A stretch of 64,000 nucleotides of DNA from Patescibacteria group bacterium (lineage in GTDB: Bacteria > Patescibacteriota > Patescibacteriia > UBA1558 > GWA2-36-10): assembly GCA_028718865.1 (NCBI GenBank), contig JAQUKX010000001.1, forward strand, positions 64,067 through 128,066. Direction: 5' to 3'. The notes beneath the pieces were generated by a model. It was not told where the DNA came from and did not search any database. It worked only from the letters and a program-made list of their open reading frames with translations. Made by a program: the position numbers and the translations under genes. Below, in pieces: positions 22,436-37,830 of this stretch. The stretch's first letter is position 1; each line of letters opens with the position of its first letter.

Positions 22436-23629
22436 TTAACGGTTTTTTAATTTTTTTCTCAAAAAAGCCGGAATATCCAGTTCTTCCTCTTCTTTGCTTT
22501 TTTCCAATTCTATACGCTCTTCTTTTTCCTCATCTTCCTTTCTAGGTTTTTCAAAAGCACGCTTGAGAGTCCGCTCTTCTTCTTTTTTGGCAAAAGTTTC
22601 TGGGTAAGACAAACTGCTCTTGGACTGGCTAAGCGGTGCTGACGATGATTTCTCATGATCAGCCGCCTTAAATCCAGTGGCAATAACCGTCACTTTGATT
22701 TCATCTCCTAAAGACTCGTCAATCACCGCGCCAAAGATTATTTTGGCTTCTGGATCGCAGCTGCTGGTAATGACTTCCGCCGCTTCATTGACTTCCAGCA
22801 TGCTCAAACTGCTGTCGCCGCTGATAGTAAACAAGACTCCGGTCGCGCCGTTTATGGACAGCTCCAAAAGCGGACTGTCAATGGCGGCCTTGGCCGCATC
22901 CTTAGCTCGATTTTCACCGCTAGCTCGACCGATGCCCATCATGGCTGAGCCGGCCTGGTGCATAATGGCTTTGACATCGGCAAAGTCCACATTGACCAAG
23001 CCCGGGACAGTGATAACATCGGAAATACCCTGTACTCCTTGTTTTAATACTTCATCCACTATAGAAAATGCTTCTAGTAATGATGTCTTTTTTTCTATGA
23101 CCTGCAGCAAGCGGTCATTGGGAATAGTAATAATAGCATCCACTTTATCCAATAATTTTTCCAAGCCTCGCTGGGCTATTTCTCTTCTCTGCACTCCTTC
23201 AAAAGTAAAAGGCTTGGTCACTACCGCCACCGTCAAAGCCCCCACTTCTCTGGCCAGTGATGCAATCAAAGGCGCTGCACCCGTACCGGTACCTCCGCCC
23301 AAGCCGCAGGTAATAAACACCATGTCCGAGCCTTCCAGCTCGCTGATAATATCCTGCTCATTTTCCTCAGCGCTTTTGAGGCCTAGATCTGGATCCATGC
23401 CTGCTCCCAAGCCGCGCGTGGTATTTTTGCCAATGTGAATTTTTCTAGGAGCAACTGAGTGATGCAAAGCCTGAGCATCGGTATTGACGGCAATAAAATC
23501 AATTCCCCGGATTTTGGCTGTTACCATCCGATTGATAGCTGATCCGCCCGAACCGCCCACGCCGACTACTTTGATGTTGGCAAAAGCCTCTATAGGAGGA
23601 ATGACTTCTTTGATGTTTTTTCTAACCAT
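22436..23629 (-). CDS. ftsZ: cell division GTPase FtsZ
   Basis: GVGGSGGSAINRM, NTDAQAL and GGGTGTGAAP motifs. Confidence 0.95.
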   Translation of the reverse strand: MVRKNIKEVIPPIEAFANIKVVGVGGSGGSAINRMVTAKIRGIDFIAVNTDAQALHHSVAPRKIHIGKNTTRGLGAGMDPDLGLKSAEENEQDIISELEGSDMVFITCGLGGGTGTGAAPLIASLAREVGALTVAVVTKPFTFEGVQRREIAQRGLEKLLDKVDAIITIPNDRLLQVIEKKTSLLEAFSIVDEVLKQGVQGISDVITVPGLVNVDFADVKAIMHQAGSAMMGIGRASGENRAKDAAKAAIDSPLLELSINGATGVLFTISGDSSLSMLEVNEAAEVITSSCDPEAKIIFGAVIDESLGDEIKVTVIATGFKAADHEKSSSAPLSQSKSSLSYPETFAKKEEERTLKRAFEKPRKEDEEKEERIELEKSKEEEELDIPAFLRKKLKNR

Positions 23630-23659
23630 TATTTTGAATTAGTCAATTTACTTATTATT

Positions 23660-24931
23660 TTAAGAAGAAGGCCAAATTGATTTAAACCAATTTTTCAATT
23701 TGGAACTGGTTTTGGCTGCTGAAGAAAAAGGCGACAAATGAGACAAAAATCCGCTGCTGAAATTGATGTTTTGGTGCGCCCAAATCACTAAACCCAGAGC
23801 TGTAGTATACTCTAAATCATTTATCTTATCTATGGCAAAATTACGGTTGCTGGGCAAGCCTAAAAAAGCCGGCAAACCCAAAACTTTTTTGGCCAATTCC
23901 TCCACTAGAGCCAGCTTAGCGCCACCACCGGTCAAAACCACCCCAGCCGGCAACTTGCCTTCTTTGCCAATTTTTTTCAATTCTTGATTTAGCAAAGAAA
24001 AAATCTCCTCCATCCTGGCTTCACAAATCTCAGCTATGTCTTTTTTGTAAACATAGGAGCCTTTTTTCTCGTCTTCAGAATACTTGTGCAGATCCACTTC
24101 GTCTCTTTTGGCAATGCCCTCGCTGATGGCCTGAGCATGATCTATTTTGACTGCTTCGGCCACTTCTACCGAAGTCTTGAGTCCAATAGCCAAATCATTG
24201 GTAATATGACCGGCACCAACTGGCAGAACCGCCGTATGCAAAATATTGCCTTCTTCAAAAACAATCAAAGAAGTAGTAGCTGATCCGATGTTGACCACGG
24301 CCACGCCCAAATCTTTTTGCCGAGGAGTCAAAACTGCCTCAGCTGTAGACAAAATGGAAAAAACAATGGTTTCAATATCTACTCCTGTTCTATAAATAAC
24401 TTTGGTGAGATTTTTAACCTGGGAAGACAAAGCCATAATCACCTGCGTTTCTACTTCCAGACGCACACCGGACATGCCTTGAGGCTCTTTGAGGCCTTTT
24501 TGGTCATCAAGATTATAGCTAATAGGCAAAACATGTAAAACTTCGTAATTGGGCAAAGTAGTAGTGCTCTCTGCCACCTCTAGAGCTCTTTCTACATCAG
24601 AATCCTCTACCTGCTCATTGGCTTTGGCTACAGCGACCACTCCTTTACTGGGCAAAGTCTTGATATGAGCGCCGGCAATACCAACCACGATCTTATCAAT
24701 ACGCTGACCAGTCATTCTTTCGCATTTTTCTATGGTCTCGGAAATGCAAGAAACCGCCTCTTCAATAGAGGCGATGCTACCGCGGCTAATACCCTCGGCT
24801 GGTGTCTCTGCCGCGCCAATAATACTCAATCGGCCATCGGCTACCACCTGTCCCATCACTATCCGAATACTGCTCGTGCCTATGTCCAGTCCGCAAATTA
24901 TGTCTTTTTTACTTGCCATGATTAGCGCCAA
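23660..24931 (-). CDS. ftsA: cell division protein FtsA
   Basis: Actin-like ATPase (GLDIGTSSIR, VVNIGSATT, LTGGGA). It sits immediately upstream of ftsZ. Confidence 0.9.
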   Translation of the reverse strand: MALIMASKKDIICGLDIGTSSIRIVMGQVVADGRLSIIGAAETPAEGISRGSIASIEEAVSCISETIEKCERMTGQRIDKIVVGIAGAHIKTLPSKGVVAVAKANEQVEDSDVERALEVAESTTTLPNYEVLHVLPISYNLDDQKGLKEPQGMSGVRLEVETQVIMALSSQVKNLTKVIYRTGVDIETIVFSILSTAEAVLTPRQKDLGVAVVNIGSATTSLIVFEEGNILHTAVLPVGAGHITNDLAIGLKTSVEVAEAVKIDHAQAISEGIAKRDEVDLHKYSEDEKKGSYVYKKDIAEICEARMEEIFSLLNQELKKIGKEGKLPAGVVLTGGGAKLALVEELAKKVLGLPAFLGLPSNRNFAIDKINDLEYTTALGLVIWAHQNINFSSGFLSHLSPFSSAAKTSSKLKNWFKSIWPSS

Positions 24932-24987
24932 AACTTAACTTATGATTATTAATTATAACTAAATTATTGATTTTTGCCAAATGATAT

Positions 24988-25326
24988 TTATAAAAAAATA
25001 AGCGCTCCTATTATCAGAGCAAAGATACTGGCCAAAAGCACTGTAGCAGCTGCCAAATCCTTGATCTCCTTAGCAAAGGCATGAGTACGTGGGGCTAAAA
25101 TATCCACTAGCCGCTCCAAAGCCGAATTGACTATTTCTAGAGACAAAATCAAAGCAATAGTAACTATCAATATCAGCCAAGACTTGATATCAAGCTGTCT
25201 TTGCCAAGCCAATAAAAGAACTAAAAAAGCTATCACTACCTGAATCCGAAAAGTTTTTTCAGTTTTAAAAACCGTCTTTAATCCCCGAAATGCGTGTCTA
25301 AAACTGCGCCAAAGCGATTGAAACAT
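24988..25326 (-). CDS. dgkA: diacylglycerol kinase (prokaryotic DgkA family)
   Basis: 112-aa 3-TM protein with a conserved E...N..ALE region. The ybeY-dgkA pairing is conserved. Confidence 0.7.
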   Translation of the reverse strand: MFQSLWRSFRHAFRGLKTVFKTEKTFRIQVVIAFLVLLLAWQRQLDIKSWLILIVTIALILSLEIVNSALERLVDILAPRTHAFAKEIKDLAAATVLLASIFALIIGALIFL

Positions 25327-25331
25327 AAAAT

Positions 25332-25745
25332 TTATTTTGCTAAATCTCCCAATATCTCCTCTTCTAGTTTTGTTTGCTGCTTGGCCTCTTGTGCGCTTCT
25401 TTCATGGTCATAGCCCAAAAGATGCAATATCCCATGAACCGTCAAAAGCTGCAGTTGGGACTTGAGGCTTTGTTTTTTTTCTTTGGCTGCCTGCCTGGCT
25501 TGATTGACGGAAATAAGCACCTCACCCAATTCATCGCTAGCAGCCAAAGAAAAGGATAAAACATCAGTAGCCTTGTCTTTGCCGCGGTAAACCCTGTTCA
25601 ATTCCTTCATCTCTTTATCCGACAACAGAGCAATAGAGACATTTTTCAAGTAGCCAAAACGTTTATTGATTATTTTTTCCAAACTTCCCAGCCAAGAAAA
25701 GTCTGCTCGCTGTCCTCTTTTGTTCAAAAACAAAAAATTAGCCAT
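25332..25745 (-). CDS. ybeY: rRNA maturation endoribonuclease YbeY
   Basis: HGILHLLGYDHE metal-binding motif. Confidence 0.9.
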   Translation of the reverse strand: MANFLFLNKRGQRADFSWLGSLEKIINKRFGYLKNVSIALLSDKEMKELNRVYRGKDKATDVLSFSLAASDELGEVLISVNQARQAAKEKKQSLKSQLQLLTVHGILHLLGYDHERSAQEAKQQTKLEEEILGDLAK

Positions 25746-25763
25746 AAATAGAATTACAATAGC

Positions 25764-26789
25764 CTACATACTACTATCCAAAAGCTCAAAGCTGTTTTGC
25801 ATCATTTGAAAAGTAGTATGGAAATTCTCGGTCAAAGCCGCGCCGCTTTCGTAAATAAGTATATAAATAAACTGATTGTTCACTGCCAAAATTTGCTTGC
25901 CGTCAGCTGAGCGCAAAGCTGGTTGTCCAGCCAGAGAATAATTTTGCATATTAGCTGCCGACGGCAACAGATTGCCCAGCTCCTGCCTGGCTTGACTAAG
26001 CGTCAATGCTCCGTCGTTGGCCATGGCATAAATAATGAAAAACTCCCCGGTCTCGGAATCCGGCAAAATCATAATCTGAGATAAGTCATTGCCAATAGCT
26101 TGCGCTACCCAAGGATTGGGCTTGAGCAATGAATAGCCGAACAAAGAATTAATAAACCTGTCTACCAGACCCGAATCTTCCAAACGTCCCGGGCCAAGAG
26201 GGTTATAAAGGTTGACTATCTCCATGCCATCGCTATAACCATCGCGGTCAGTATCAGGATTGTTGGGGTCAGTGCCATAGAGCATTTCTTCTTCATAAGT
26301 AAGCATATCATTATCAGCGTCTATATTGGTAATGGGCGCTGGCTCTGGAGTAGGCGTAGGTTCTGGTATTGGCGCTGGCTCTGGAACCGGCTCGGGTTCT
26401 GGCTGAACTTGCCCAGGTGGCGCCTGAATATTATTGTCAGCCGCGGGAGCTTGCTGGCCTGTCTGACTATCAGCCGGCAAGACCGGCTCTTCTGCTTGGG
26501 AAAAATACCAAAAAATACCCGCTAAGACTCCCCCTGAAATAAACATAAAAACCAAAGTAAAAATAACTATGCCTTTGACCGGTGATTTGACTCGGCTAGC
26601 TTTGACTGTCTTGCCCGGCGAAGCTGGCTTAGGCTCATTTTTGGAAATAGTGAATTTACCCGGCATAACATAAATAGAAGATTGATCAATCTCCGGCTCT
26701 GGAATGCTTTTGGGCTGGATATTTTCCTGATCCTGATCGCTGGCCTGATTAAAATTATTTGGATTTTTTGGGCTGCCAAAATTAAGCAT
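25764..26789 (-). CDS. single-pass membrane protein with Pro-rich linker and thrombospondin type-3-like Ca-binding repeats
   Basis: TM helix, (PEP)n linker, and DADND...DPNNPDTDRDGYSDG repeats. Confidence 0.6.
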   Translation of the reverse strand: MLNFGSPKNPNNFNQASDQDQENIQPKSIPEPEIDQSSIYVMPGKFTISKNEPKPASPGKTVKASRVKSPVKGIVIFTLVFMFISGGVLAGIFWYFSQAEEPVLPADSQTGQQAPAADNNIQAPPGQVQPEPEPVPEPAPIPEPTPTPEPAPITNIDADNDMLTYEEEMLYGTDPNNPDTDRDGYSDGMEIVNLYNPLGPGRLEDSGLVDRFINSLFGYSLLKPNPWVAQAIGNDLSQIMILPDSETGEFFIIYAMANDGALTLSQARQELGNLLPSAANMQNYSLAGQPALRSADGKQILAVNNQFIYILIYESGAALTENFHTTFQMMQNSFELLDSSM

Positions 26790-26823
26790 GATTTCTCAAG
26801 TTTACTGATTATATAAAAATTTT

Positions 26824-27741
26824 TTAATATAAGCGACCTGTACTTTGATATCTACCCAGAGCTTCTTCTATATGCTGCATGGGACGGAAGAAAAAATCAT
26901 CCGGCACTTGCTCCCAGAAGCTAGCTGGCAAGGGTATGGGCATAGCCGGCATTTCATCCAAAAGACCCGGGCCAAGAGGATTATAGTCATTTTCCACTTC
27001 TACTCCATCGCTATAGCCATCGCGGTCAGTGTCGGGATTGTTGGGGTCAGTGCCATAGATAAATATCTCTTCGTAATCAGTCAAACCGTCACCGTCAGTA
27101 TCAGCCAATAGTGGATTGGTGCGATAAACTCTCACCTCGTCATAATCCAGCACGCCGTCATTATCCGTGTCAGGATCATAAGGATTGGTACCCAAGGCTC
27201 TTTCTTCAGCATCACTTAGTCCATCCAGATCGCTGTCTAAAAACCTGTCATCGCCTATATCAATGATGGGATCAACATCTATGGGCGGCTCGTCGCCATT
27301 GCCGTTTTGCCCATTTACTGGTGGTTGCTCAATCGGCAAACCACCCCCTTCCGGCAAAAAATCGCTTCTAAAAACAAAATAATAAAAAGCGCCCCCCGCC
27401 AGTAGCAAAAGAAAAAATACTGATAACACTATAATTATTTTTTGCTTGGGACTTTGCCCCTCGGGAATATCTTGGCTAACCAAGTCTGCCGGCAAAGCTG
27501 GAGCCATTTGTTCGCTCTGCTGAGACGCTTCAGCAGTAGCTAAAGGTAAGCCTTGGTTGGGTGATATGGGCTGCATTTTGCCAGAACGCAAAGCACTAGG
27601 CTTCTCTTCAAATGAAGCGGCTCTTGCGACTGGCGACTGATTGACTTGGGAAGTTGGATCAACATCGGCAAACATATCGTCCAGCTTTTTCGGAACTTGG
27701 CCAGAACTCTGATTTTGATCTTTTTTTAAGTCATCAAACAT
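26824..27741 (-). CDS. single-pass membrane protein with four or more thrombospondin type-3-like repeats; paralog of 25764..26789
   Basis: DSDLDGLSD, DPDTDNDGVLD, DTDGDGLTD and DPNNPDTDRDGYSDG repeats. It shares a 53-nt near-identical tract with its neighbour. Confidence 0.6.
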   Translation of the reverse strand: MFDDLKKDQNQSSGQVPKKLDDMFADVDPTSQVNQSPVARAASFEEKPSALRSGKMQPISPNQGLPLATAEASQQSEQMAPALPADLVSQDIPEGQSPKQKIIIVLSVFFLLLLAGGAFYYFVFRSDFLPEGGGLPIEQPPVNGQNGNGDEPPIDVDPIIDIGDDRFLDSDLDGLSDAEERALGTNPYDPDTDNDGVLDYDEVRVYRTNPLLADTDGDGLTDYEEIFIYGTDPNNPDTDRDGYSDGVEVENDYNPLGPGLLDEMPAMPIPLPASFWEQVPDDFFFRPMQHIEEALGRYQSTGRLY

Positions 27742-27767
27742 GATTTTTTACTATAATTTTTATAAAA

Positions 27768-30700
27768 CTAAGGAGTAGGTAAAGTACAATCCATAAACCC
27801 ATCACCACGGCCATCACAGAAAGTGGAATTAATCACTGATATAGTAGCCGCTGACCAGCCAGTAGTACTACTCAAATACCTGCCACCAGTGCCATCTGCC
27901 AAACATTGTCCATGAGCAGCCAATTCTGCGTGAAAATTAGTAAACAATACCGGACTAATAGCAACTTTTGTATTCTGAGAATTGGCCAAATCTATGGAAT
28001 GAGCTAAAACATCATGAGTGCCTGAACCAAAACTTGTATCTGGATTACAGTTTTCATTTGCTCTCAAAATAGATGCATTACTACCGCAATAACCACCTTC
28101 ATCGCTTACTGGAATAAGCAACCTGTGATATCCTGGTAGCCAATTATAATCTGGAATTATCTTGGTCATAGCATAGCCCCAGTTACTCAATCGTCCAGCT
28201 GCGTCGCCATGTCCGCTTATAAAACCCGGGTCAGGATTACCTATTATATTTAAATAATCCTGGCATCTTTCTCCGTAAAGAACTTGATCCCCATCTGCAG
28301 AAACTTCGCTGTTAATATCATTACTACTATTGTTATAAAAACTCAAATAACGAACTCTTTGGTTATAAGGAGCCTGGCGTAAAGGACAGTCAGTATACAA
28401 AGCTTTGAAGACTACTTGTGATTCATCTAGCCAGCCAGCCGATCCGAGCCAAGGCGATAAGCTCGGTATATCGTCAATGGTGATAGGTGTTAAATAAGTA
28501 GGAGTTACCGGATTGGTATATACACCGCCTCCTGGAACACCAGAGCCATCGGCCGATACTATACCACCGTCATTATCCCCCATTACAAAAATGGATATAC
28601 GATAATCAATGTCCCCGTAAGCGCCACTATCTAAATTATTCACCACCTGCTGCAAAGAGCTGCAAAGAGCGACCGCTCTATCATACATACTACCAGAAAC
28701 ATCAAATACATACACTATGTCTATATCTTTCTCTATCTGCACCGCTGGATCAAAACCAGTATCGCATTGTTCCCACTGCTGCACTATTCCGTCGCCGCAC
28801 CAACCGCCGGTATTGCCGCAACTAACACACTCGTACTGATTGTTGGGAGAGGAAAAATTAGCAAAATTGCTACCCCTAGGCCAAGGGAAACTACCGCCTG
28901 GAGGATTATTGCCACCCGGACCCCAATCGCAGCCTTCGCCAAAAAATACCTGTCTAATTCCGTCACCGCAATAAGGGCCGCTGGGATCGCTTCTTTGACA
29001 CATAAAGCTCCCTGTCATATCACAAGTATAAGTATTGTCCGGACCTGATTGAGCCGGCAAAGGTCTATTTGGATAATGCAGGCCATCACAAACCTCACTA
29101 TAAGCCAATTGGGCAATGCCGTCGCCGCAGTAACCGCCTATTCTAGCTAGACAATCCGCTCGGCAAGAATACTGATTAGTCTGACTTGACTGATCGGGCG
29201 AAGGCGGTGCCGGGCTTTGAGTTATACCTCGCCAAGGATCGCCTGGATCACAGAATTCATCATTACCCAAATCCCAAACGCCGTCGCCGCACCAACCGCC
29301 ATAAGTAGGAGAACAAGCTCCGTAGTTAAGCCCGTTATAAGTAAAATATCCAACTCCATGTGGACGACAAGCGTATTGATTAAAAGGAGTAGAATTAGGA
29401 GGGCTGGGCGTACTATAATTCATCAGATAATCACAATTCTCACCGAATTGAGATTGTAAAGTACCGTCGCCGCAATACTGGCTGGTAAATTGACACAATG
29501 TATTGCAAGCATAGGCTAAATTAGGACCAGAATCATGCGGGCTGGGTGTACTATAATTCATATAATCACACTGCTCTTCCGCTTGCACTATGCCATCACC
29601 GCAATACCCGGCATAAGGGGCGCCAACACTACAAGTCACTTGGCAAGAGCTGTTGCAACTAGCCACGCCGCCATTGGTACAGCCCCAGGTACTCAAGCCG
29701 CTGGGACTGGCTGATGAGTCACACTGCTCTATACCTGCCGACCAAACACCGTCACCACAACGAGCAGCTGGGTAAGCATTGGGTCCTTGATTACACATTG
29801 CCTGACAGCCTTGGCCACAGAATAAACCATGTCCAGACTGACAAATAAAATCACCAGCAAAATTATTACCTTCGCACTGCTCATAATAAGACTGAATAGT
29901 GCCATCACCACAATAACCACCGCATTCAGCCTCACCAAAAGGCGGATCTGGTACATACCAAGTACAGCTGATATCATTGCCGTTGGAGCCAATGGTGCCA
30001 GGCGGATTACAACCAACCATACGCGGTGTCCACCAATCATAGTTAGCTGGACAAGCATTTATAAATCCACCGTCACACTGCTCATTACCGTCAACTATAC
30101 CGTTACCGCAATAAGGACTAGCTGGCCCGCCAGGAGCATTGAGGTTTGTAGCATTACAATAACTAACCAAACCCAAATTGACATTTATACCTAAAGAAGA
30201 AAGTGTTGGTCGCAATCTATTAACAAAATTAATATTATACTGCGCCGGATAAATATCATATTCAAAGTTGGCACCTAAGTCATAATCCTGCCCCCCTGAT
30301 AAAACATTGTATAAATAAACTAAAGAATTTTGAGGACAAACAAAAGTATTAGGATCAACCGACTGATTCCAGCAAGTAGCAGGGTCAGCCCCCTCTGGAC
30401 AACCATTAAATCTATTAATTGGGTCAACTGCTGCCAATGAACCTAAGGCGGAAGAAAAAGCATCCTGCCAAGACGGCCAAGGGCTGGTAGACATGCCTTG
30501 GACATAAGTACCGGCTCCTAAAATAGGGTAATAAGGCCTGCAAGTTTGAGTACCGGGGCAATCATTATCTTGAGCGCAAGCCATCAAACTATTACCGCTG
30601 CAAGCTTTGTGACTTTGGCCGTATTCTTCCAGTCGCAAAGCTATACTAACCAAATCTGCCAAACGCTTGGTATCACGACGGAGCTTGAGTCCTTGGGAAA

Positions 30701-33700
30701 GGCAACGACCCTCACAGTCAAAATCGCTGCTACAAGCAATACTTGCATCTACTTCACAGACATTATTATTATTTTGAGTAATATTAATATTTAATTTAAG
30801 ATTATCCACAAATTGGCTAAAAATATTTATAGTATCCGGCCGAGCGCCAATATTATGCGCTAAAATATAAATATTGGTATACAAATTACCAGATATATTT
30901 GTACCGGCAATATAAATAGTACTGCCTACTTGCAAAGCCTGATAACCATCCACCTCTATCAAAATGCCTGGAATATTGGGGTTGGGGGCATGGCGCAAAA
31001 ACCAATCACGCACTGACAAATGCTGGTCATTTCTCATTATCCTAATACCAATAATATCAATACCTGGCTGAACATCAGCAACAGTCACTACCACTGGCGA
31101 AGAACGACTAAACTGATCGTCTCCGCCCGCACAAGCATCAGCATAAGAAGCCACTATATACTCATAAGTTTGCCCAGAAGCAACTGAAGCATCGGTATAA
31201 TTCAAAGTGGAAGTAGGCAAGGTATTTAGTAGGACATAATTACCGCCTAAAACCCGCCTATAAACCCTGAAGCCAGACGGGGGCAGCTGCAAAGGATTGC
31301 TGGGAGAAGAAGGAGTCAGCCAGCTCAAAGAAACACTATCATCAGTCACTGCTGTCACTTGTAGATTTCTTGGTGCATTAGGTATACACAAATCAATGCC
31401 TTGTTCCTGTCCCTGAGCAGAACCAATACCCAAAAAAGTCAACAGACGATTAAAAGGATTCTCTTTTGCTTGCTTTCTTTGCCGGACCGAATCTGAAGCA
31501 AACGCCAAACTGCCTAATCCGACATCCTCAATATATGAAGAAGTGATCGATGGATTAATAGTAAAAATATACTCCCGCAAACCATCGGTACTAAAATTAT
31601 CTCTAGGCGTAGGCAAATATTGCAAGTGTGGCAAAGATGTGCTACCCGGCAAACCTGAATACTGACAATAGAAAGTAGAAAAATTATAAGTTGACTCATT
31701 CCAAGGAAAGCCAGGAAGACTGGGCCAAGGATTCTCGCAGAAAAAAAGATTGATCAAGCCGCTGGCAGTGGTGGAACTGCCATCATCAGGACTACTGACT
31801 CCCGCACCTAGAGTCACTTGGCCGTTTTGACTGCCAGAAGTAACCAAAGTGTTTCCTGGTAACTGTGCCGCCGCCAAAGTAGCCAAAGAATTACTTAAAG
31901 ACCAAGTAAAATTTAGTAGGCTATTATTGAGAAGCTGGCCGGAAATACTATAGACAAAGGCCTCATAACTGCGCTGATTACCCAGCAAAGGACTGGCATC
32001 ATCAGGACAGTCATTTCTGCCTGTGCAGGTAAACCAGTCTGGAGTAGGGGCAATCCAAGCATTATGGACTCGGCAAGTTTGACCGCCCGTGCTAAAACTC
32101 CAACCCGCCTCGCCTGATAATCCCGGTGGCAAAGACGATAAGCCGGCAGATCCCGCCAAATCCAAAGGTATGTTATTTTGACTGACTACCTGACTAGCAT
32201 CTATTATCGCCATCCAAAATTGAGTATCAGCAGGCAATAAACTGCTAGGATTAAATATTGCCCGAGTTTCTCTTTCTGGATCATCATCCAAATTCATAGT
32301 AACAAAGCGGAAAGAGCCAGGTACTTCAATATAAGAACCATTGTCTTCTCTATATAATTTTATATTATTTCTAATACTCTCCTCGTTCATCCGCTCGGAA
32401 AAATCCAAATAAGGCGAAACATTGGTGCAGATATTTTGTCCAATAGGCTCACGGCCTATGATAGTAGGTGTATTATAAGAAACTGTGGTACCGCTGTTAT
32501 CAATAGTCAATAATCCAAAATCAGAGAAACTGCCGGCAATGGGATCGGTGAGTAAAACATCAACATTAGTACTACCAGACTCAAGAGCTGGTAAATCATT
32601 TCTTACTTGGACAAAACTATTACTACCTGAACCAGGTATTGAAGCTGCTCCTGAGGGAGTAGTATTACTCAAAGACCATTGATAAGTGCAATTAGGACAA
32701 TATACTGGCACGGGTCCGCAATTGGGAATATTGCTAGCCATAGCAGTAGCGTCAAATCTAGAAAGTTGTCCCAGCTGAGTAGATAGCTGTGTGTCGGGAT
32801 CTACATCAGCGCCTGACACCACGCACTGACTATCACCAGTGCTAAAATTCCAGCTAAGACTAACTGTGCTATTACCATCAGAAATAAATCCGGAGCTCAA
32901 AACTATATAATAAGTTTCTCCGGGCAGCAGAGGCCCATTGTAGCCAAAATCCATACGTCTATTGTTGGGGCTGAAAACAACAGAGTCATTAAAAATATTC
33001 GATCCGTTCGGAGCACCTTGATAAATAGCTATATTGCTGATATTAAGCGTGGCCGGCAAAACACTACGATTAAACTCCACTCTGATAATCGGATCCAAAC
33101 ACATGCCATCGCAATTCGGCCAATAATTAGTAATTGCCAAAGGCGTCTGCATAGAACCGCTAATATCCATAAGAAGTTCCCCTTGGGAAACAAAATTTTG
33201 ACCGCCATCAATTATAGTACCTAGTACTTCCGCACTACCTTGGCCAGCCAGCAAAAGATTTTGCACTCCCACTATTTGCTGATTTTGTCCACTGGCAATA
33301 TTTGCCGCTGAACTGTCCGGCAAAACAGCACCCAAAGCCCAGTTGTAAGTACAATTCTGGCAATAAACTATTGTTTCACCGCACTGGGGAGTGCTGCTGA
33401 TAGCATTAAGTCTATAATTGACAATCTGATTGGTAAGACTAGAAGTATAAGTTGACGGCGTAACCCGAGCATTGGAGATAACACACTGGTCATTACCAGT
33501 GGTAAAATCCCAGCTATAATCGGCAGCCAAAGCATTTCCCAATATATCAGTAAAACCTTGGCCCAAAGTAACACTATAAACAACGCCTGGTTGCAAAGGA
33601 ATAGGCAACTGAACATGCAAATATTGACCATTACCGGAAAAGCTATGGACAACTGGAGTAACCAGTGTAGCACCGGCTAACACCCTGATGTCATTTATAT

Positions 33701-36197
33701 CTGCGTGATTGAAAGTGGTTTGATCTATCTCCCTATTAAACCTAACCATCAATTCGGAAGTGGTGCAGGCGCCATCGCAATCAGGCGAGTGACTCAAGAC
33801 TTCCAAATTACCGCTCTCTGAGCTTATGCTCCAAGTATATTCGCAAAAATTAACTGTATCGCAACTGGTGCCACTCATACAAGAACTACCAGCGCTGGTT
33901 GGACAGCAAAGATTGCCTAATCCACTATCCATACATTGCTGATTGCTAGTGCAATTGCCGACATTAAAAGGCCAAGGATTGCTTTCGGTATTATTATTAT
34001 CTCTGACTATCGCCAATCCGGTTTGAGCATTGTTTGGCACACTAGTCATAATCTGATTATTGTTCCAAATCGAAGGAGTAGCCAAAGCGCCGTTGTAAAA
34101 AATAACACTGCCCATAGTAGCGCCAAAATTCTCCCCGACAAAAGTAACTGCCGTGCCTATTGGTCCGTTGTCTGGAGAGACATTACAGATCTGCGGTCCA
34201 GGCAAGCCGGCTAATACTTGGAAATTAACTGAATTGCTTTCAGCTTGGTCTGAATTTCTAATTACCCTAATAGGTTGTCCGCCCAAAGGCAAGCCAGAGG
34301 GCACCTTGACAATAATCCTGTCATTACGCCAATAATTACCGCCGCAAATCGCCGGAAAGCTAAAATCTCCATCTATACTGCCAAACAAAACTCTTCCTTG
34401 AGTATTGCCAAAGTTGGCTCCCATAATAGTGACATACTGGCCTATTGGGCCAGAATTTGGACTGACGCTATTGATTATAGGCAAACCACTTACTTGAGAT
34501 AAAGCTGTAAAAGGATAGGAATTACTCTCTTCTTCACTCGGAGATTCTATAACTACTCCTACATTACCCACTACATTGGGCACTTGGGCGGTATAAAGAT
34601 ATTGGGAAGAAAAATTAACCACACTGCTTTGGAAATTACCAAAATGAATCTGGCTATTATCCGCAAACTTCAAGCCATGGATGGTCACGCTTGTTTCAAA
34701 CGCGCCTGACAGGGGATCCAAACGGCAAATACCAGGCCGGTCAATGTTGTTTCTGGTAAATTGCACACCATTGCTCGTCTCTCCTCCTTCACTTATATCT
34801 TTCGTGATCGTCAATAAGCCATTTACAGCCGCTGCAGGCACAGCAATGACAATATAATTATCAGTCCAGGTATTGCTACACTGATTATTTATATCCGCCG
34901 GACGAATGCCATTGACAGTTGCGCCAGCGCCAGCGTCAAACGTCACTACTCCTTCCAAATCTCCAAAACCACTTCCATAAATGGTAATCAAATTACCTTC
35001 GTTGCCATTATCAGGAGAGATAGAATCAATCCTCGGCCCACCGGGCGTGCCGCTACCGGCACAAATAGCCGCTGGTAGACATGAATTTGACCGACAACAC
35101 CCTGAAGAACAATCGTTTCCCGAAGAACACTCTACTGTAAAAAACTCATTATCACTCTGACCACCGACTTCCACTACTACCTGACTGCTAAGAGCATTGG
35201 CCGGCACCTGGAAATTTATCAAATTATCTGTCCAATTGCTTATATTCAAATCAGTGTTGGTCAAATCAATTGTTTGATCATTTAGCCAGCCCAACATACT
35301 TAAACTTCCTTGAGTATTACCAAAGCCTATACCTTCTATATCCACGTTAATGGGCGCCGTGGCGCTATCAGGATTGAGACAATGGATATCTGGTCCAGTT
35401 ACATTACTGTCAACATTAAAGACAAAATCTGCCAGACCTGGCGGCACTTCATTTATGTTTCCCAAATCATTATAAAGATGAATGGTATAAAGGCCGTCAG
35501 TCAAGGTCAGAGGCACTCTCACATTTACTCTAGTATTTGACCAAGAATTGGCTGTTGTGCCGCCACAGACTACTAATTCAGCAACTGTTTCAGCCCCGCC
35601 AGCATCTCTTAATAAGACTCTACCATCCGCGTCCGGGTTATTATTTCCATTGGTATCAAAATTACGACCCCTGATAGTAATAGAAGCTCCCGGAGGCCCT
35701 GATTGCCTGTTTGTACTGCAAATAATAGGATTATCAGGATTAAGTGGCGCCGGACAATTACTCTGGCCGCCAGGAGGAGGAATACCATTTCCCGGTGTTC
35801 CCGGTGTTCCCGGACCAGTAGCATCATAGAGCTGATTCAGCACAAATCTAGCAATGCCATAAGAAGCCAAAATAATCACCAGACCAATAACAGCACTAAT
35901 AATCAGCATTTTGGCTCTTTGAATTTTGTCAGTTGCCCCGCGCGAGGTCATCCATAAAAATCCGCCATAAAGGAGCAGAAGCACCGCCAAAGTTCCCAAA
36001 AATCCCAAAAATATATTTATCACCAAAGCAATGGTTTCTTGAATAGACCTGGTACCCAAATAAACACCGGCATCAGCCAATTCATCAATGCCCAGCTCCT
36101 GGGCAGCTTGCGCCTGCACTTTGCTCATACTGACCAAAAACAAAGAAGAAGCGCTAAAAGTGATAAAAAATATTTTTTGCATGGCTATATTAAACAT
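27768..36197 (-). CDS. giant (2809 aa) multidomain cell-surface protein, putative adhesin
   Basis: Domain order: signal peptide, VirB2/TrbC-pilin-like two-TM anchor, Gly/Pro linker, five or more IPT/TIG domains, two Big_5/SbsA-Ig-like modules, FN3, about nine Cys-rich CGDG...CD repeats, then a C-terminal VWA domain (DIVYVFDVSGSM). Single uninterrupted ORF. Confidence 0.85.
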   Translation of the reverse strand: MFNIAMQKIFFITFSASSLFLVSMSKVQAQAAQELGIDELADAGVYLGTRSIQETIALVINIFLGFLGTLAVLLLLYGGFLWMTSRGATDKIQRAKMLIISAVIGLVIILASYGIARFVLNQLYDATGPGTPGTPGNGIPPPGGQSNCPAPLNPDNPIICSTNRQSGPPGASITIRGRNFDTNGNNNPDADGRVLLRDAGGAETVAELVVCGGTTANSWSNTRVNVRVPLTLTDGLYTIHLYNDLGNINEVPPGLADFVFNVDSNVTGPDIHCLNPDSATAPINVDIEGIGFGNTQGSLSMLGWLNDQTIDLTNTDLNISNWTDNLINFQVPANALSSQVVVEVGGQSDNEFFTVECSSGNDCSSGCCRSNSCLPAAICAGSGTPGGPRIDSISPDNGNEGNLITIYGSGFGDLEGVVTFDAGAGATVNGIRPADINNQCSNTWTDNYIVIAVPAAAVNGLLTITKDISEGGETSNGVQFTRNNIDRPGICRLDPLSGAFETSVTIHGLKFADNSQIHFGNFQSSVVNFSSQYLYTAQVPNVVGNVGVVIESPSEEESNSYPFTALSQVSGLPIINSVSPNSGPIGQYVTIMGANFGNTQGRVLFGSIDGDFSFPAICGGNYWRNDRIIVKVPSGLPLGGQPIRVIRNSDQAESNSVNFQVLAGLPGPQICNVSPDNGPIGTAVTFVGENFGATMGSVIFYNGALATPSIWNNNQIMTSVPNNAQTGLAIVRDNNNTESNPWPFNVGNCTSNQQCMDSGLGNLCCPTSAGSSCMSGTSCDTVNFCEYTWSISSESGNLEVLSHSPDCDGACTTSELMVRFNREIDQTTFNHADINDIRVLAGATLVTPVVHSFSGNGQYLHVQLPIPLQPGVVYSVTLGQGFTDILGNALAADYSWDFTTGNDQCVISNARVTPSTYTSSLTNQIVNYRLNAISSTPQCGETIVYCQNCTYNWALGAVLPDSSAANIASGQNQQIVGVQNLLLAGQGSAEVLGTIIDGGQNFVSQGELLMDISGSMQTPLAITNYWPNCDGMCLDPIIRVEFNRSVLPATLNISNIAIYQGAPNGSNIFNDSVVFSPNNRRMDFGYNGPLLPGETYYIVLSSGFISDGNSTVSLSWNFSTGDSQCVVSGADVDPDTQLSTQLGQLSRFDATAMASNIPNCGPVPVYCPNCTYQWSLSNTTPSGAASIPGSGSNSFVQVRNDLPALESGSTNVDVLLTDPIAGSFSDFGLLTIDNSGTTVSYNTPTIIGREPIGQNICTNVSPYLDFSERMNEESIRNNIKLYREDNGSYIEVPGSFRFVTMNLDDDPERETRAIFNPSSLLPADTQFWMAIIDASQVVSQNNIPLDLAGSAGLSSLPPGLSGEAGWSFSTGGQTCRVHNAWIAPTPDWFTCTGRNDCPDDASPLLGNQRSYEAFVYSISGQLLNNSLLNFTWSLSNSLATLAAAQLPGNTLVTSGSQNGQVTLGAGVSSPDDGSSTTASGLINLFFCENPWPSLPGFPWNESTYNFSTFYCQYSGLPGSTSLPHLQYLPTPRDNFSTDGLREYIFTINPSITSSYIEDVGLGSLAFASDSVRQRKQAKENPFNRLLTFLGIGSAQGQEQGIDLCIPNAPRNLQVTAVTDDSVSLSWLTPSSPSNPLQLPPSGFRVYRRVLGGNYVLLNTLPTSTLNYTDASVASGQTYEYIVASYADACAGGDDQFSRSSPVVVTVADVQPGIDIIGIRIMRNDQHLSVRDWFLRHAPNPNIPGILIEVDGYQALQVGSTIYIAGTNISGNLYTNIYILAHNIGARPDTINIFSQFVDNLKLNINITQNNNNVCEVDASIACSSDFDCEGRCLSQGLKLRRDTKRLADLVSIALRLEEYGQSHKACSGNSLMACAQDNDCPGTQTCRPYYPILGAGTYVQGMSTSPWPSWQDAFSSALGSLAAVDPINRFNGCPEGADPATCWNQSVDPNTFVCPQNSLVYLYNVLSGGQDYDLGANFEYDIYPAQYNINFVNRLRPTLSSLGINVNLGLVSYCNATNLNAPGGPASPYCGNGIVDGNEQCDGGFINACPANYDWWTPRMVGCNPPGTIGSNGNDISCTWYVPDPPFGEAECGGYCGDGTIQSYYEQCEGNNFAGDFICQSGHGLFCGQGCQAMCNQGPNAYPAARCGDGVWSAGIEQCDSSASPSGLSTWGCTNGGVASCNSSCQVTCSVGAPYAGYCGDGIVQAEEQCDYMNYSTPSPHDSGPNLAYACNTLCQFTSQYCGDGTLQSQFGENCDYLMNYSTPSPPNSTPFNQYACRPHGVGYFTYNGLNYGACSPTYGGWCGDGVWDLGNDEFCDPGDPWRGITQSPAPPSPDQSSQTNQYSCRADCLARIGGYCGDGIAQLAYSEVCDGLHYPNRPLPAQSGPDNTYTCDMTGSFMCQRSDPSGPYCGDGIRQVFFGEGCDWGPGGNNPPGGSFPWPRGSNFANFSSPNNQYECVSCGNTGGWCGDGIVQQWEQCDTGFDPAVQIEKDIDIVYVFDVSGSMYDRAVALCSSLQQVVNNLDSGAYGDIDYRISIFVMGDNDGGIVSADGSGVPGGGVYTNPVTPTYLTPITIDDIPSLSPWLGSAGWLDESQVVFKALYTDCPLRQAPYNQRVRYLSFYNNSSNDINSEVSADGDQVLYGERCQDYLNIIGNPDPGFISGHGDAAGRLSNWGYAMTKIIPDYNWLPGYHRLLIPVSDEGGYCGSNASILRANENCNPDTSFGSGTHDVLAHSIDLANSQNTKVAISPVLFTNFHAELAAHGQCLADGTGGRYLSSTTGWSAATISVINSTFCDGRGDGFMDCTLPTP

Positions 36198-36204
36198 TTT
36201 TTTA

Positions 36205-37830
36205 CTAAGGCACCTGACAATTCACTCCCGGACATTGCGAGCCAGAGGCATTATTATCACAAACACAAGACCCGCCTACTGGATCTTCGCAAGCACAAGG
36301 ATACCAGCAATTTTGCCTGGCATCTTTAATGCCGGAATTAAGCGTAACTCTATAATCAGCACTCAAATCAAAAGTGTCATGCTGAATTCTCAAAGTATCT
36401 CCCGGGCTGCCGCTGTCAATTCTCATCCAATAATTTATCAAGCCACCACCGGATCTTGTTAAATTAACGCTATTGGTATTTATAGAGCTGGAAAGAAGTG
36501 TTTTGTCAAAAACAACTCGAATAGGTTCATTTGCGCCAACGCTATTTGGCTCGTCCATACTGCTAATAACCGGCGGCGTCAAATCAATCTGATTATTAGT
36601 GGCAAACTGCCAGCCATAGCTGGTAGGCGCTACTGCAGCCACACCGCAACTCCCGGCGCAATTGAGTTGATTACCGGCCATATCACGAATATTATTGGTA
36701 ACCTCGCCGATAAAATCAGCGCCGCCGGGAAGGCAATAGACTTCTCCGCCACAGGAATTGTTGCCACAAAGGTCATCCGTCATAAACTCAATTGTCTGAT
36801 ATTGATTGGAAATAACATACTCTCCTGCTACTGGTGAACCTGCCGTACTCACCGTGATGTTGGCAAAAGAAGGGTGTATGCCCACGGCAAATAGCGGATT
36901 GACCGCTTCAGAAAAATTTATTTGCACTATACTGTTTCGAGGATTATTACTTGAATTGTGCCTAGGTTGAACTGAAATAACACGAGGCGGAGCAAGATCA
37001 AGATCGGTACTGACAGTAAAACGCCAGCTATAACCCCCAACCAGCGGAAAAGCCGCTGCTCCAGCAGCTGTACGCAAAGAAGCCAAGTCCATCCTATATC
37101 TGACATTTTCCGTATCACTGCCTAAATGACTATCGGTGTTGCCATAAGGATTAAACTCAAAAACTCGCGGACTAGCCGTATAGCTAATCAGCAAATCACT
37201 ACCGCTAATATAATTATTTGTCCCATCTATATATAACCTGATATTTGTTTCATGAGCCGGACAATCGCTAACACAACTGGCATTAGCCACAATAGTAGAA
37301 ACATCCATATCTTCTCTAAAAGTCACGTAAATATTGGTATTTCTAGGAATCCCCGTAGCATTTCTAGCCGGATAATGACTATCTAGAACTCCGCCTGACA
37401 ATCCAACGCCGCCGCTGTAGCCGCTGCCTACTCCCGAACCACCAGGCCCCTGAATAACATAACGATCATAGTTCTGTAAAATAAAGCGAGCAATAGCATA
37501 GGAAGATAATACTATTACCAAACCAATCACTCCGTTGATAATGATTCTCTTAGCTTTATCTACCTTATCGGAACTACCTCCGGACGTCATCCAAATAAAA
37601 CCGCCGTAGAGTATGATCAAGGTGGTCAAAACTCCCAAAAATCCTAAAAATATATTTATAATCAAAGCAATGGTCTGACGTATATCTCTAGTGCCCAAAT
37701 TAACGCCAGCGTCTGCCAACTCATCAATACCCAATTCTTGAGCAGCTTGAGCCAAAGATAGCTGGGGGAATAAAAAAATAACCGCCAAAAACAAAATAAA
37801 TAAAACGGTTATTTTTTTACGACTAAGCAT
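36205..37830 (-). CDS. 541-aa surface protein with the same VirB2/TrbC-pilin-like N-terminal anchor plus Big_5/Ig-like domains
   Basis: Residues about 27-110 are about 75% identical to the giant protein N-terminus. A Gly-rich linker and PPV...SbsA-Ig-like motifs follow. It ends 7 nt upstream of the giant gene. Confidence 0.75.
   Translation of the reverse strand: MLSRKKITVLFILFLAVIFLFPQLSLAQAAQELGIDELADAGVNLGTRDIRQTIALIINIFLGFLGVLTTLIILYGGFIWMTSGGSSDKVDKAKRIIINGVIGLVIVLSSYAIARFILQNYDRYVIQGPGGSGVGSGYSGGVGLSGGVLDSHYPARNATGIPRNTNIYVTFREDMDVSTIVANASCVSDCPAHETNIRLYIDGTNNYISGSDLLISYTASPRVFEFNPYGNTDSHLGSDTENVRYRMDLASLRTAAGAAAFPLVGGYSWRFTVSTDLDLAPPRVISVQPRHNSSNNPRNSIVQINFSEAVNPLFAVGIHPSFANITVSTAGSPVAGEYVISNQYQTIEFMTDDLCGNNSCGGEVYCLPGGADFIGEVTNNIRDMAGNQLNCAGSCGVAAVAPTSYGWQFATNNQIDLTPPVISSMDEPNSVGANEPIRVVFDKTLLSSSINTNSVNLTRSGGGLINYWMRIDSGSPGDTLRIQHDTFDLSADYRVTLNSGIKDARQNCWYPCACEDPVGGSCVCDNNASGSQCPGVNCQVP

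Follow-up and report, generated by a model that had tools for sequence, protein, structure and literature searches.

How have two adjacent genes that are otherwise unalignable at the DNA level come to share a patch of near-identical sequence? The question is posed by a 64,000-nt stretch of DNA (hereafter the window; GC content, 41.7%) from a Patescibacteria metagenome-assembled genome (MAG; contig JAQUKX010000001.1, 137,949 bp; positions 64,067 to 128,066), in which genes B and A lie in tandem on the minus strand, separated by 34 nt. Gene A (25764-26789) is a 341-aa open reading frame (ORF) identical to the NCBI call P0001, "thrombospondin type 3 repeat-containing protein", and gene B (26824-27741) is a 305-aa ORF identical to the NCBI call P0016 / PHO91_00490, "hypothetical protein". 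The predicted plan of A comprises a cytoplasmic tail with an HxMPxKF motif, a transmembrane helix, a Pro/Glu-rich linker, two thrombospondin type 3 (TSP3)-like units, and a PsbP-like C-terminal domain; that of B comprises a cytoplasmic tail with MFDDLK and DDMFADVDP motifs, a transmembrane helix, four TSP3 repeats, and a 43-aa C-terminal tail. An earlier note on this DNA had ascribed the shared patch either to recent gene conversion or to strong nucleotide-level constraint. The comparisons described herein make short-tract gene conversion from A into B, between tandem surface-protein paralogs, the probable answer.

The patch is 55 nt long and differs at 3 of its 55 positions (94.5% identity) between the copy in A (26227-26281, minus strand), the probable donor, and the copy in B (27005-27059, minus strand; delimited by blastn and codon alignment), the probable recipient, where it overlies the last TSP3 repeat. 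The two copies are 778 nt apart and both encode YGTDPNNPDTDRDGYSDG in frame, in agreement with the earlier note, which also counted the three mismatches correctly but placed the A copy one position out of register (26228-26280 against 27007-27059 mismatches at 44 of 53 positions). No further copy is found in the window, and 100 dinucleotide-preserving shuffles yielded no match. All three mismatches are A in the gene A copy and G in the gene B copy on the plus strand, and each is a synonymous transition at a third codon position. The patch is part of a 106-nt block of 82% identity (26176-26281 versus 26954-27059), which blastn returns as the sole significant DNA similarity between A and B; the pairwise nucleotide alignment that had been proposed as a check accordingly shows genes diverged overall, with one discrete high-identity block. 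As delimited by blastn and segment identities, the rest of the block consists in A (26176-26226, minus strand) of six diverged codons (MEIVNL) and then YNPLGPG (26184-26204), and in B (26954-27004, minus strand) of a diverged stretch (VEVEND) and then YNPLGPG (26962-26982). At the protein level, approximately 50 residues of A and B align, with 72% identity, too few for the dN/dS profile over the whole genes that had been proposed as a further check.

Codon usage and comparison with orthologs both argue for an exchange of DNA at the patch. Genes A and B of the window (W_A and W_B, respectively) are identical there at 18/18 residues and 14/18 codons, where the codon usage of the genome predicts 8.2 identical codons of 18 (P(≥14/18) = 0.003), and the shared codons include the non-preferred GAC, CCC, AAC, and CGC. 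The closest A ortholog, that of locus L001 (L1_A; 63% protein identity to A overall, with the neighbouring FtsA at 93%), encodes YSTDPNNPDTDRDGYSDG, one substitution away from the W_A peptide, with codons identical to those of W_A at only 7 of 17 positions. In the core of the patch, W_B is 91% identical to W_A, compared with 79% for W_A and L1_A and 68% for W_B and the B ortholog of locus L084 (L84_B), whereas in the upstream 15 codons and the middle six codons the identity of W_B is 62-78% to most B orthologs and 39-44% to W_A. The nearest B orthologs (L084 and L085) read YGTDPNDPDSDDDGY[LM]DG, and the four core changes that set W_B apart from them (D>N, S>T, D>R, and L/M>S) are all to the state found in W_A and L1_A; since the differing residues of W_B match the A lineage, A is taken to be the donor and B the recipient. 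A maximum chi-square mosaic test, in which W_A and a B ortholog serve as proxy parents of W_B, is significant for either ortholog (permutation P = 0.0015 for L084 and 0.011 for L085). The patch is thus a discrete segment in which synonymous identity exceeds both expectation and that between orthologs, and W_B clusters with W_A in the core but with B orthologs in the flanks, as is expected of a conversion tract.

Two controls place these figures in context. As a control for codon bias, the tandem pair was locally aligned in 22 other genomes, where pooled codon identity at identical residues was 0.52 and no 18-codon window held more than 10 identical codons, except at L014, with 15/15 at the homologous last-repeat position. 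There, in a distant genome, the A/B pair (1123-2424 versus 535-1074) has a patch of 36 nt with 97% identity and all 15 codons in common, which suggests, from sequence comparison, an independent event and hence recurrent conversion at the last TSP3 repeat. For chance identity, a degenerate DNA pattern for the patch peptide, which retrieved only unrelated TSP3 genes, supplied the control; two unrelated genes that code for this peptide or a close variant of it agree with W_A at 35-40 of 47 nt, versus 44 of 47 for W_B. Of the two explanations put forward in the earlier note, gene conversion is thus the one favoured by the codon, ortholog, mosaic, and 22-genome comparisons alike.

The word "recent", which had been attached to the conversion, holds in a relative sense only, as four synonymous differences have already accumulated in 18 codons. 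A rough decay estimate (n = 18) from codon identities of 0.78 in the patch, 0.55 between the window and L001 (W-L1) orthologs, and ~0.45 at saturation would put the event at about one third of the W-L1 divergence, that is, after that split but not very recently. The neighbouring YNPLGPG patch is 81% identical between W_A and W_B, and there W_A and L1_A look B-like relative to other A orthologs, a hint that an older exchange may have run the other way. We infer the following mechanism and direction: a segment of A encoding a TSP3 unit would have been transferred to the final TSP3 repeat of B by RecA-type short-tract gene conversion, later than the split from the closest sampled relative, and the converted patch would since have gained three to four synonymous differences. 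Strong purifying selection on the repeat in both paralogs may preserve DNA similarity sufficient to seed such exchanges.

Several points weigh against gene conversion. The tract is short (18 codons) and each test is only moderately significant, which is a consequence of that shortness, although the tests agree with one another, and the statistical support overall is moderate (P of about 0.002-0.02); with the pooled within-genome baseline (0.52) as the null, the 14/18 identical codons give P = 0.024, and with the W-L1 ortholog baseline (~0.55) roughly 0.04. A peptide much like that of the patch (YGTDPNDPDSDDDGY) is already present in the closest B orthologs, so some of the patch identity is ancestral, and the diverged six-codon stretch splits the 106-nt block, so that two tracts or post-conversion selection must be assumed. 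In the L001 lineage, the sister B gene breaks off shortly ahead of the patch, and the timing is a rough estimate from codon identities. The comparison is one between lineages; the contigs of the B homologs P0041 and P0044 end short of the A patch, and protein A, run against metagenomes in search of a closer relative that has both genes, gave no match. Lastly, the function and partnership of A and B are deduced from domains and synteny. The similar peptide of the B orthologs, together with P values that are modest and vary from 0.003 to 0.07 with the choice of null, leaves some room for an explanation in which no DNA was exchanged, selection, purifying or convergent, holding the same 18-residue Ca2+-binding sequence in both proteins and shared codon bias aligning the synonymous sites by chance. 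Conservation in both families is indeed highest in the repeat, where the D/E columns are invariant; A/B pairs within genomes share ~52% of codons at identical residues, and an unrelated gene with a near-identical peptide (one substitution) reaches 40/47 nt identity. Such an explanation nevertheless requires B to have acquired, in a span of 10 codons, four convergent replacements that each lead to the A state, in addition to 14/18 identical codons, several of them non-preferred. The true A ortholog, under equal peptide constraint, shares only 7/17 codons, such a patch is missing in 21 of the 22 other genomes, and the mosaic test is significant, all of which renders selection and chance an unlikely origin for the patch.

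Near-identical copies 778 nt apart within otherwise unalignable genes could also be expected of a functional DNA or RNA element present in both genes, such as a regulatory RNA structure, a protein-binding site, or a recoding signal. Here the alternative of strong nucleotide-level constraint raised in the earlier note is contradicted: the A ortholog of L001 retains the peptide but not the codons (10 of the 17 same-residue codons are changed in the patch), other genomes with the same gene pair have no DNA similarity at the patch, and Rfam gave no match at E≤1 overlapping it. Orthologs thus do not conserve the patch as nucleotide sequence, and the differences between its two copies, all synonymous third-position transitions, are those of neutrally drifting coding sequence, making a functional element highly improbable. 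An artefact or another system altogether, i.e., chimeric assembly or the template repeat/variable repeat (TR/VR) pair of a diversity-generating retroelement (DGR), is less probable still. The source is a MAG, and the mismatches all pair A in the gene A copy with G in the gene B copy on the plus strand; however, both copies are in frame in intact ORFs whose flanks match their own orthologs, and collapse or duplication during assembly is unlikely because the copies are non-identical. A DGR would vary most template adenines, with non-synonymous effect in AAC and AAT codons, yet these codons are identical here, there are only three synonymous transitions, and typical TR/VR pairs are far longer; the TR/VR candidate was rejected on these grounds, no search for a reverse transcriptase in the rest of the window having been made.

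That the two genes are paralogs, as the earlier note had asserted, is established by orthologs elsewhere. At locus L003, in another Parcubacteria genome, the gene in the B position encodes 392 aa; its alignment with A starts at the last TSP3 repeat and takes in the entire PsbP-like domain (27% identity over 194 aa, E = 2e-17), and the B-position gene of L017 resembles it. Because some B orthologs thus retain the PsbP-like domain, A and B are, as judged from these alignments, ancient tandem duplicates, the PsbP-like domain being replaced by a 43-aa tail in the B of the window. Many members of both families also begin with MF[DE][DE].

In A, this extracytoplasmic domain of the PsbP-like (Mog1/PsbP) superfamily (residues ~203-335; 25785-26183, minus strand) is supported by an AlphaFold (AF2) model, Foldseek, and sequence profiles. 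In the model, built from a 9-sequence alignment, the tail (residues 1-69) is disordered, residues 71-97 form the transmembrane helix, the Pro/Glu-rich linker is disordered, and residues ~160-330 are folded, mostly with pLDDT >90. A Foldseek search of the PDB places PsbP/CyanoP at the top (E = 1.4e-6; TM-scores of 0.46-0.59), followed by BT_1490, Apa, Tsi3, Mog1, and DcrB, and the domain has the alpha-beta-alpha sandwich fold of solved PsbP structures. A profile of the domain from 18 homologs matches CyanoP (2xb3) by sequence (E = 6.5e-5), and 60 family members yield Pfam matches to PsbP (8) and PsbP_2 (7), the best at 3.5e-7, and to DcrB (1); A itself has no Pfam match in this domain. The C-terminal domain of A is, then, a member of the PsbP-like (Mog1/PsbP) superfamily, so that the protein plan given in the earlier note, right as to the TSP3 and transmembrane parts, overlooked the main extracellular module of A. 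It shares the alpha-beta fold of PsbP/CyanoP and of the PsbP-like proteins DcrB, Tsi3, and Apa; unlike PsbP and CyanoP, it is fused to a transmembrane anchor and TSP3 repeats, its sequence identity to them is 11-15%, and its Patescibacteria host is non-photosynthetic. Since the host offers no photosystem context, nothing beyond the fold and, probably, a role in binding proteins transfers from PsbP to A. An exhaustive phmmer search with the domain returned at least 240 representative clusters at 50% identity, in nearly all of which it sits C-terminal in proteins of 300-550 aa. Separately, a piece of about 50 residues of the domain (query ~58-116) was matched 9 times in P0165 (1469 aa) and 12 times in P0191 (4428 aa), which may point to a repeat that arose from a portion of the domain, or else to an artefact of composition.

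Regarding topology, each protein has the one transmembrane helix previously proposed, at residues ~74-96 of A (26502-26570, minus strand; KD19 maximum, 2.51) and ~102-124 of B (27370-27438, minus strand; KD19 maximum, 2.63), according to Kyte-Doolittle hydrophobicity and, for A only, the AlphaFold helix. Five K/R residues fall within the 15 residues preceding the helix of A and none after it, which indicates an N-in, C-out orientation; in B the charge bias is weak, with two K/R and two D/E before the helix, so the cytoplasmic N-terminus that had been claimed for both proteins is backed for A and less clearly for B. Both are probably single-pass type II membrane proteins (N-in/C-out), as predicted from sequence, whose TSP3 units would be displayed on the cell surface and, to judge by their motif, loaded with Ca2+. 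The four DxDxDGxxDxxE repeats of B (residues 169-248; 26998-27237, minus strand; Pfam TSP3_bac and motif scan) match Pfam PF18884 TSP3_bac in four stretches with 84.1 bits (E = 5.5e-24), well above the 25-bit gathering cut-off. Protein A, with one exact and one degenerate DxDxD unit, scores 21.5 bits, below that cut-off, in a partial match to profile positions 8-22, and 31 of 60 A-family members match TSP3_bac at E≤0.01; the TSP3 profile search proposed in the earlier note therefore succeeds for B and falls short for A.

The cytoplasmic tails are otherwise disordered, yet short motifs are kept in them. HxMPxKF in A (26664-26684; residues 36-42 region) includes M42 and P43, present in at least 90% of 60 members, and the B N-terminus (27655-27741) holds MFDDLK, [DE]D[MI]F, and KPSAxQSGKxKPxS; such conservation suggests a cytoplasmic binding partner. 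The PEPxPx linker of A (PEPEPVPEPAPIPEPTPTPEPAP) is encoded by an 18-nt periodic direct repeat (26332-26402), forms a low-complexity spacer, and is replaced by Asn-rich runs in orthologs.

Among bacterial TSP3 proteins (PF18884), tandem DxDxDGxxDxxE units are common to A/B, to OmpA-family proteins with TSP3 linkers, and to Myxococcus CglD and MtsD, although the NCBIfam matches to the latter two are weak. The nearest database relatives through the TSP3 region are mostly OmpA-family proteins, which bears out the likeness to OmpA-type proteins remarked upon earlier. Nonetheless, the OmpA C-terminal peptidoglycan-binding domain (PF00691) gave no match in A or B at E≤1, and, unlike the OmpA-family and other TSP3 proteins, A and B have no OmpA_C domain, beta-barrel, or lipoprotein signal, and have a cytoplasmic tail and single transmembrane anchor instead; A further departs from typical TSP3_bac members in having just two units, under the Pfam cut-off.

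The surroundings of the pair are conserved as well. The order giant-[X]-B-A-ybeY-dgkA-ftsA-ftsZ is found at more than 20 loci, spread over several Patescibacteria classes, beginning with a T4SS_pilin and Big_5 protein of ~540 aa, followed by a giant protein and an optional Cys-rich protein X of 250 aa. These loci were collected by a scan of GTDB species representatives (5-sequence alignment) and by contig look-ups (L002-L021, L034, L046, and L059; in the window, 22436-37830, minus strand), and their labels include Parcubacteria, Komeilibacteria, Magasanikbacteria, Falkowbacteria, and Buchananbacteria. The records at L006, L007, L012, L013, L046, and others are titled "uncultured Gammaproteobacteria", "Bdellovibrionales", or "Fluviicola"; those named "Gammaproteobacteria" in the first group carry the typical Patescibacteria cluster giant-B-A-ybeY-dgkA-ftsA, and their titles look taxonomically wrong. 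No paper on this gene cluster was found in the literature, and a preprint on the Pam pilus (2026) deals with different proteins.

Gene B starts 26 nt past the stop of the giant ORF (27768-36197, minus strand; 2809 aa; annotated with Pfam and NCBIfam, and preceding B/A as an ortholog at more than 20 loci), so the pair does lie immediately downstream of the giant gene, as had been stated. The giant surface protein has an N-terminal T4SS_pilin/VirB2-like domain (28 bits versus a cut-off of 26.6), five TIG, Big_5, and fn3 domains (Pfam), Cys-rich acidic repeats (NCBIfam), and a C-terminus with a DxSGS motif and a faint VWA match; the record of the L003 ortholog lists VWA_2, and the C-terminus is possibly VWA-like. 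The giant protein and the 541-aa protein (36205-37830, minus strand) both begin with the VirB2-like T4SS_pilin domain and continue with Ig-like domains. In a survey of Patescibacteria, VirB2-like (T4SS_pilin, PF18895) proteins are small pilins, some in tandem arrays (PMC12102498). The same N-terminal domain starts the giant and the 541-aa protein, but here, unlike in the surveyed pilins, it is the membrane part of multidomain proteins of 541 and 2809 aa, and A and B have no such domain; the module appears from this architecture to serve as a membrane anchor of large surface proteins and not as a small pilin.

Downstream of A lie ybeY (25332-25745, minus strand; Pfam YbeY) and dgkA (24988-25326, minus strand; Pfam DAGK_prokar). 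The gaps giant-B, B-A, A-ybeY, and ybeY-dgkA measure 26, 34, 18, and 5 nt, respectively, and a promoter-like site (11/12) occurs only upstream of ftsA; the tight spacing and the position of this site suggest that the genes from the giant gene to dgkA form one transcription unit. Within this stretch, the B-A intergenic spacer holds an AT-rich palindrome (26810-26829), and a 16-nt inverted repeat (88% complementary, 22-nt loop) closes gene A at its 3' end, immediately ahead of ybeY (25767-25820). The conserved gene order, found in more than 20 genomes, supports a functional link of A and B with the giant protein, with which they probably act, e.g., as membrane-proximal docking or stabilising partners; the terms "functional partners" and "adhesin" that had been applied to the pair and to the giant protein, respectively, are read from domains and synteny.

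The context of the patch outweighs the patch itself: it concerns an uncharacterised protein family, built of a cytoplasmic motif, a transmembrane helix, TSP3 repeats, and a PsbP-like domain, with a fixed place between a giant VirB2-like-anchored protein and ybeY-dgkA-ftsA-ftsZ in many Patescibacteria classes. The host-attachment apparatus of episymbiotic bacteria is little understood beyond type IV pili and Pam pili, and, if A and B anchor or regulate the giant protein, they would be candidates for it. Speculatively, and with little confidence on our part, A and B might be Patescibacteria-specific transmembrane adaptors, in which the conserved tail motifs would bind a cytoplasmic partner (possibly the adjacent FtsA/FtsZ machinery), the outer TSP3 and PsbP-like modules would dock the giant protein, and recurrent conversion would keep a Ca2+-dependent interface identical; conversion at the last TSP3 repeat, in the window and at L014, would then maintain a shared interface and would not be a neutral accident. 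As regards the patch, homologous exchange appears to be active between surface-protein paralogs even in a small genome of uncultured Patescibacteria.

Gene conversion, or concerted evolution, between paralogs, whether tandem or dispersed, has known examples in bacteria, of which tufA/tufB is one. Those closest in kind involve surface proteins, namely Brucella omp2a/omp2b (PMC7050475), the Helicobacter pylori bab/sab adhesin genes (PMC3960876), and a tandem lipoprotein paralog cluster of Staphylococcus aureus (PMC2568036). Antigenic or phase variation and repeated switching are not seen for A and B; the A/B tract also differs in its length (~55 nt), in its position in a repeat module of otherwise unalignable genes, and in its occurrence in uncultured Patescibacteria. 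As in all three systems, however, a short near-identical tract joins diverged surface-protein paralogs, the recipient is a mosaic, and intragenomic identity exceeds orthologous identity. In summary, the A/B patch, read as gene conversion, is a new example of a well-known process, set in an uncharacterised but widespread Patescibacteria gene family.

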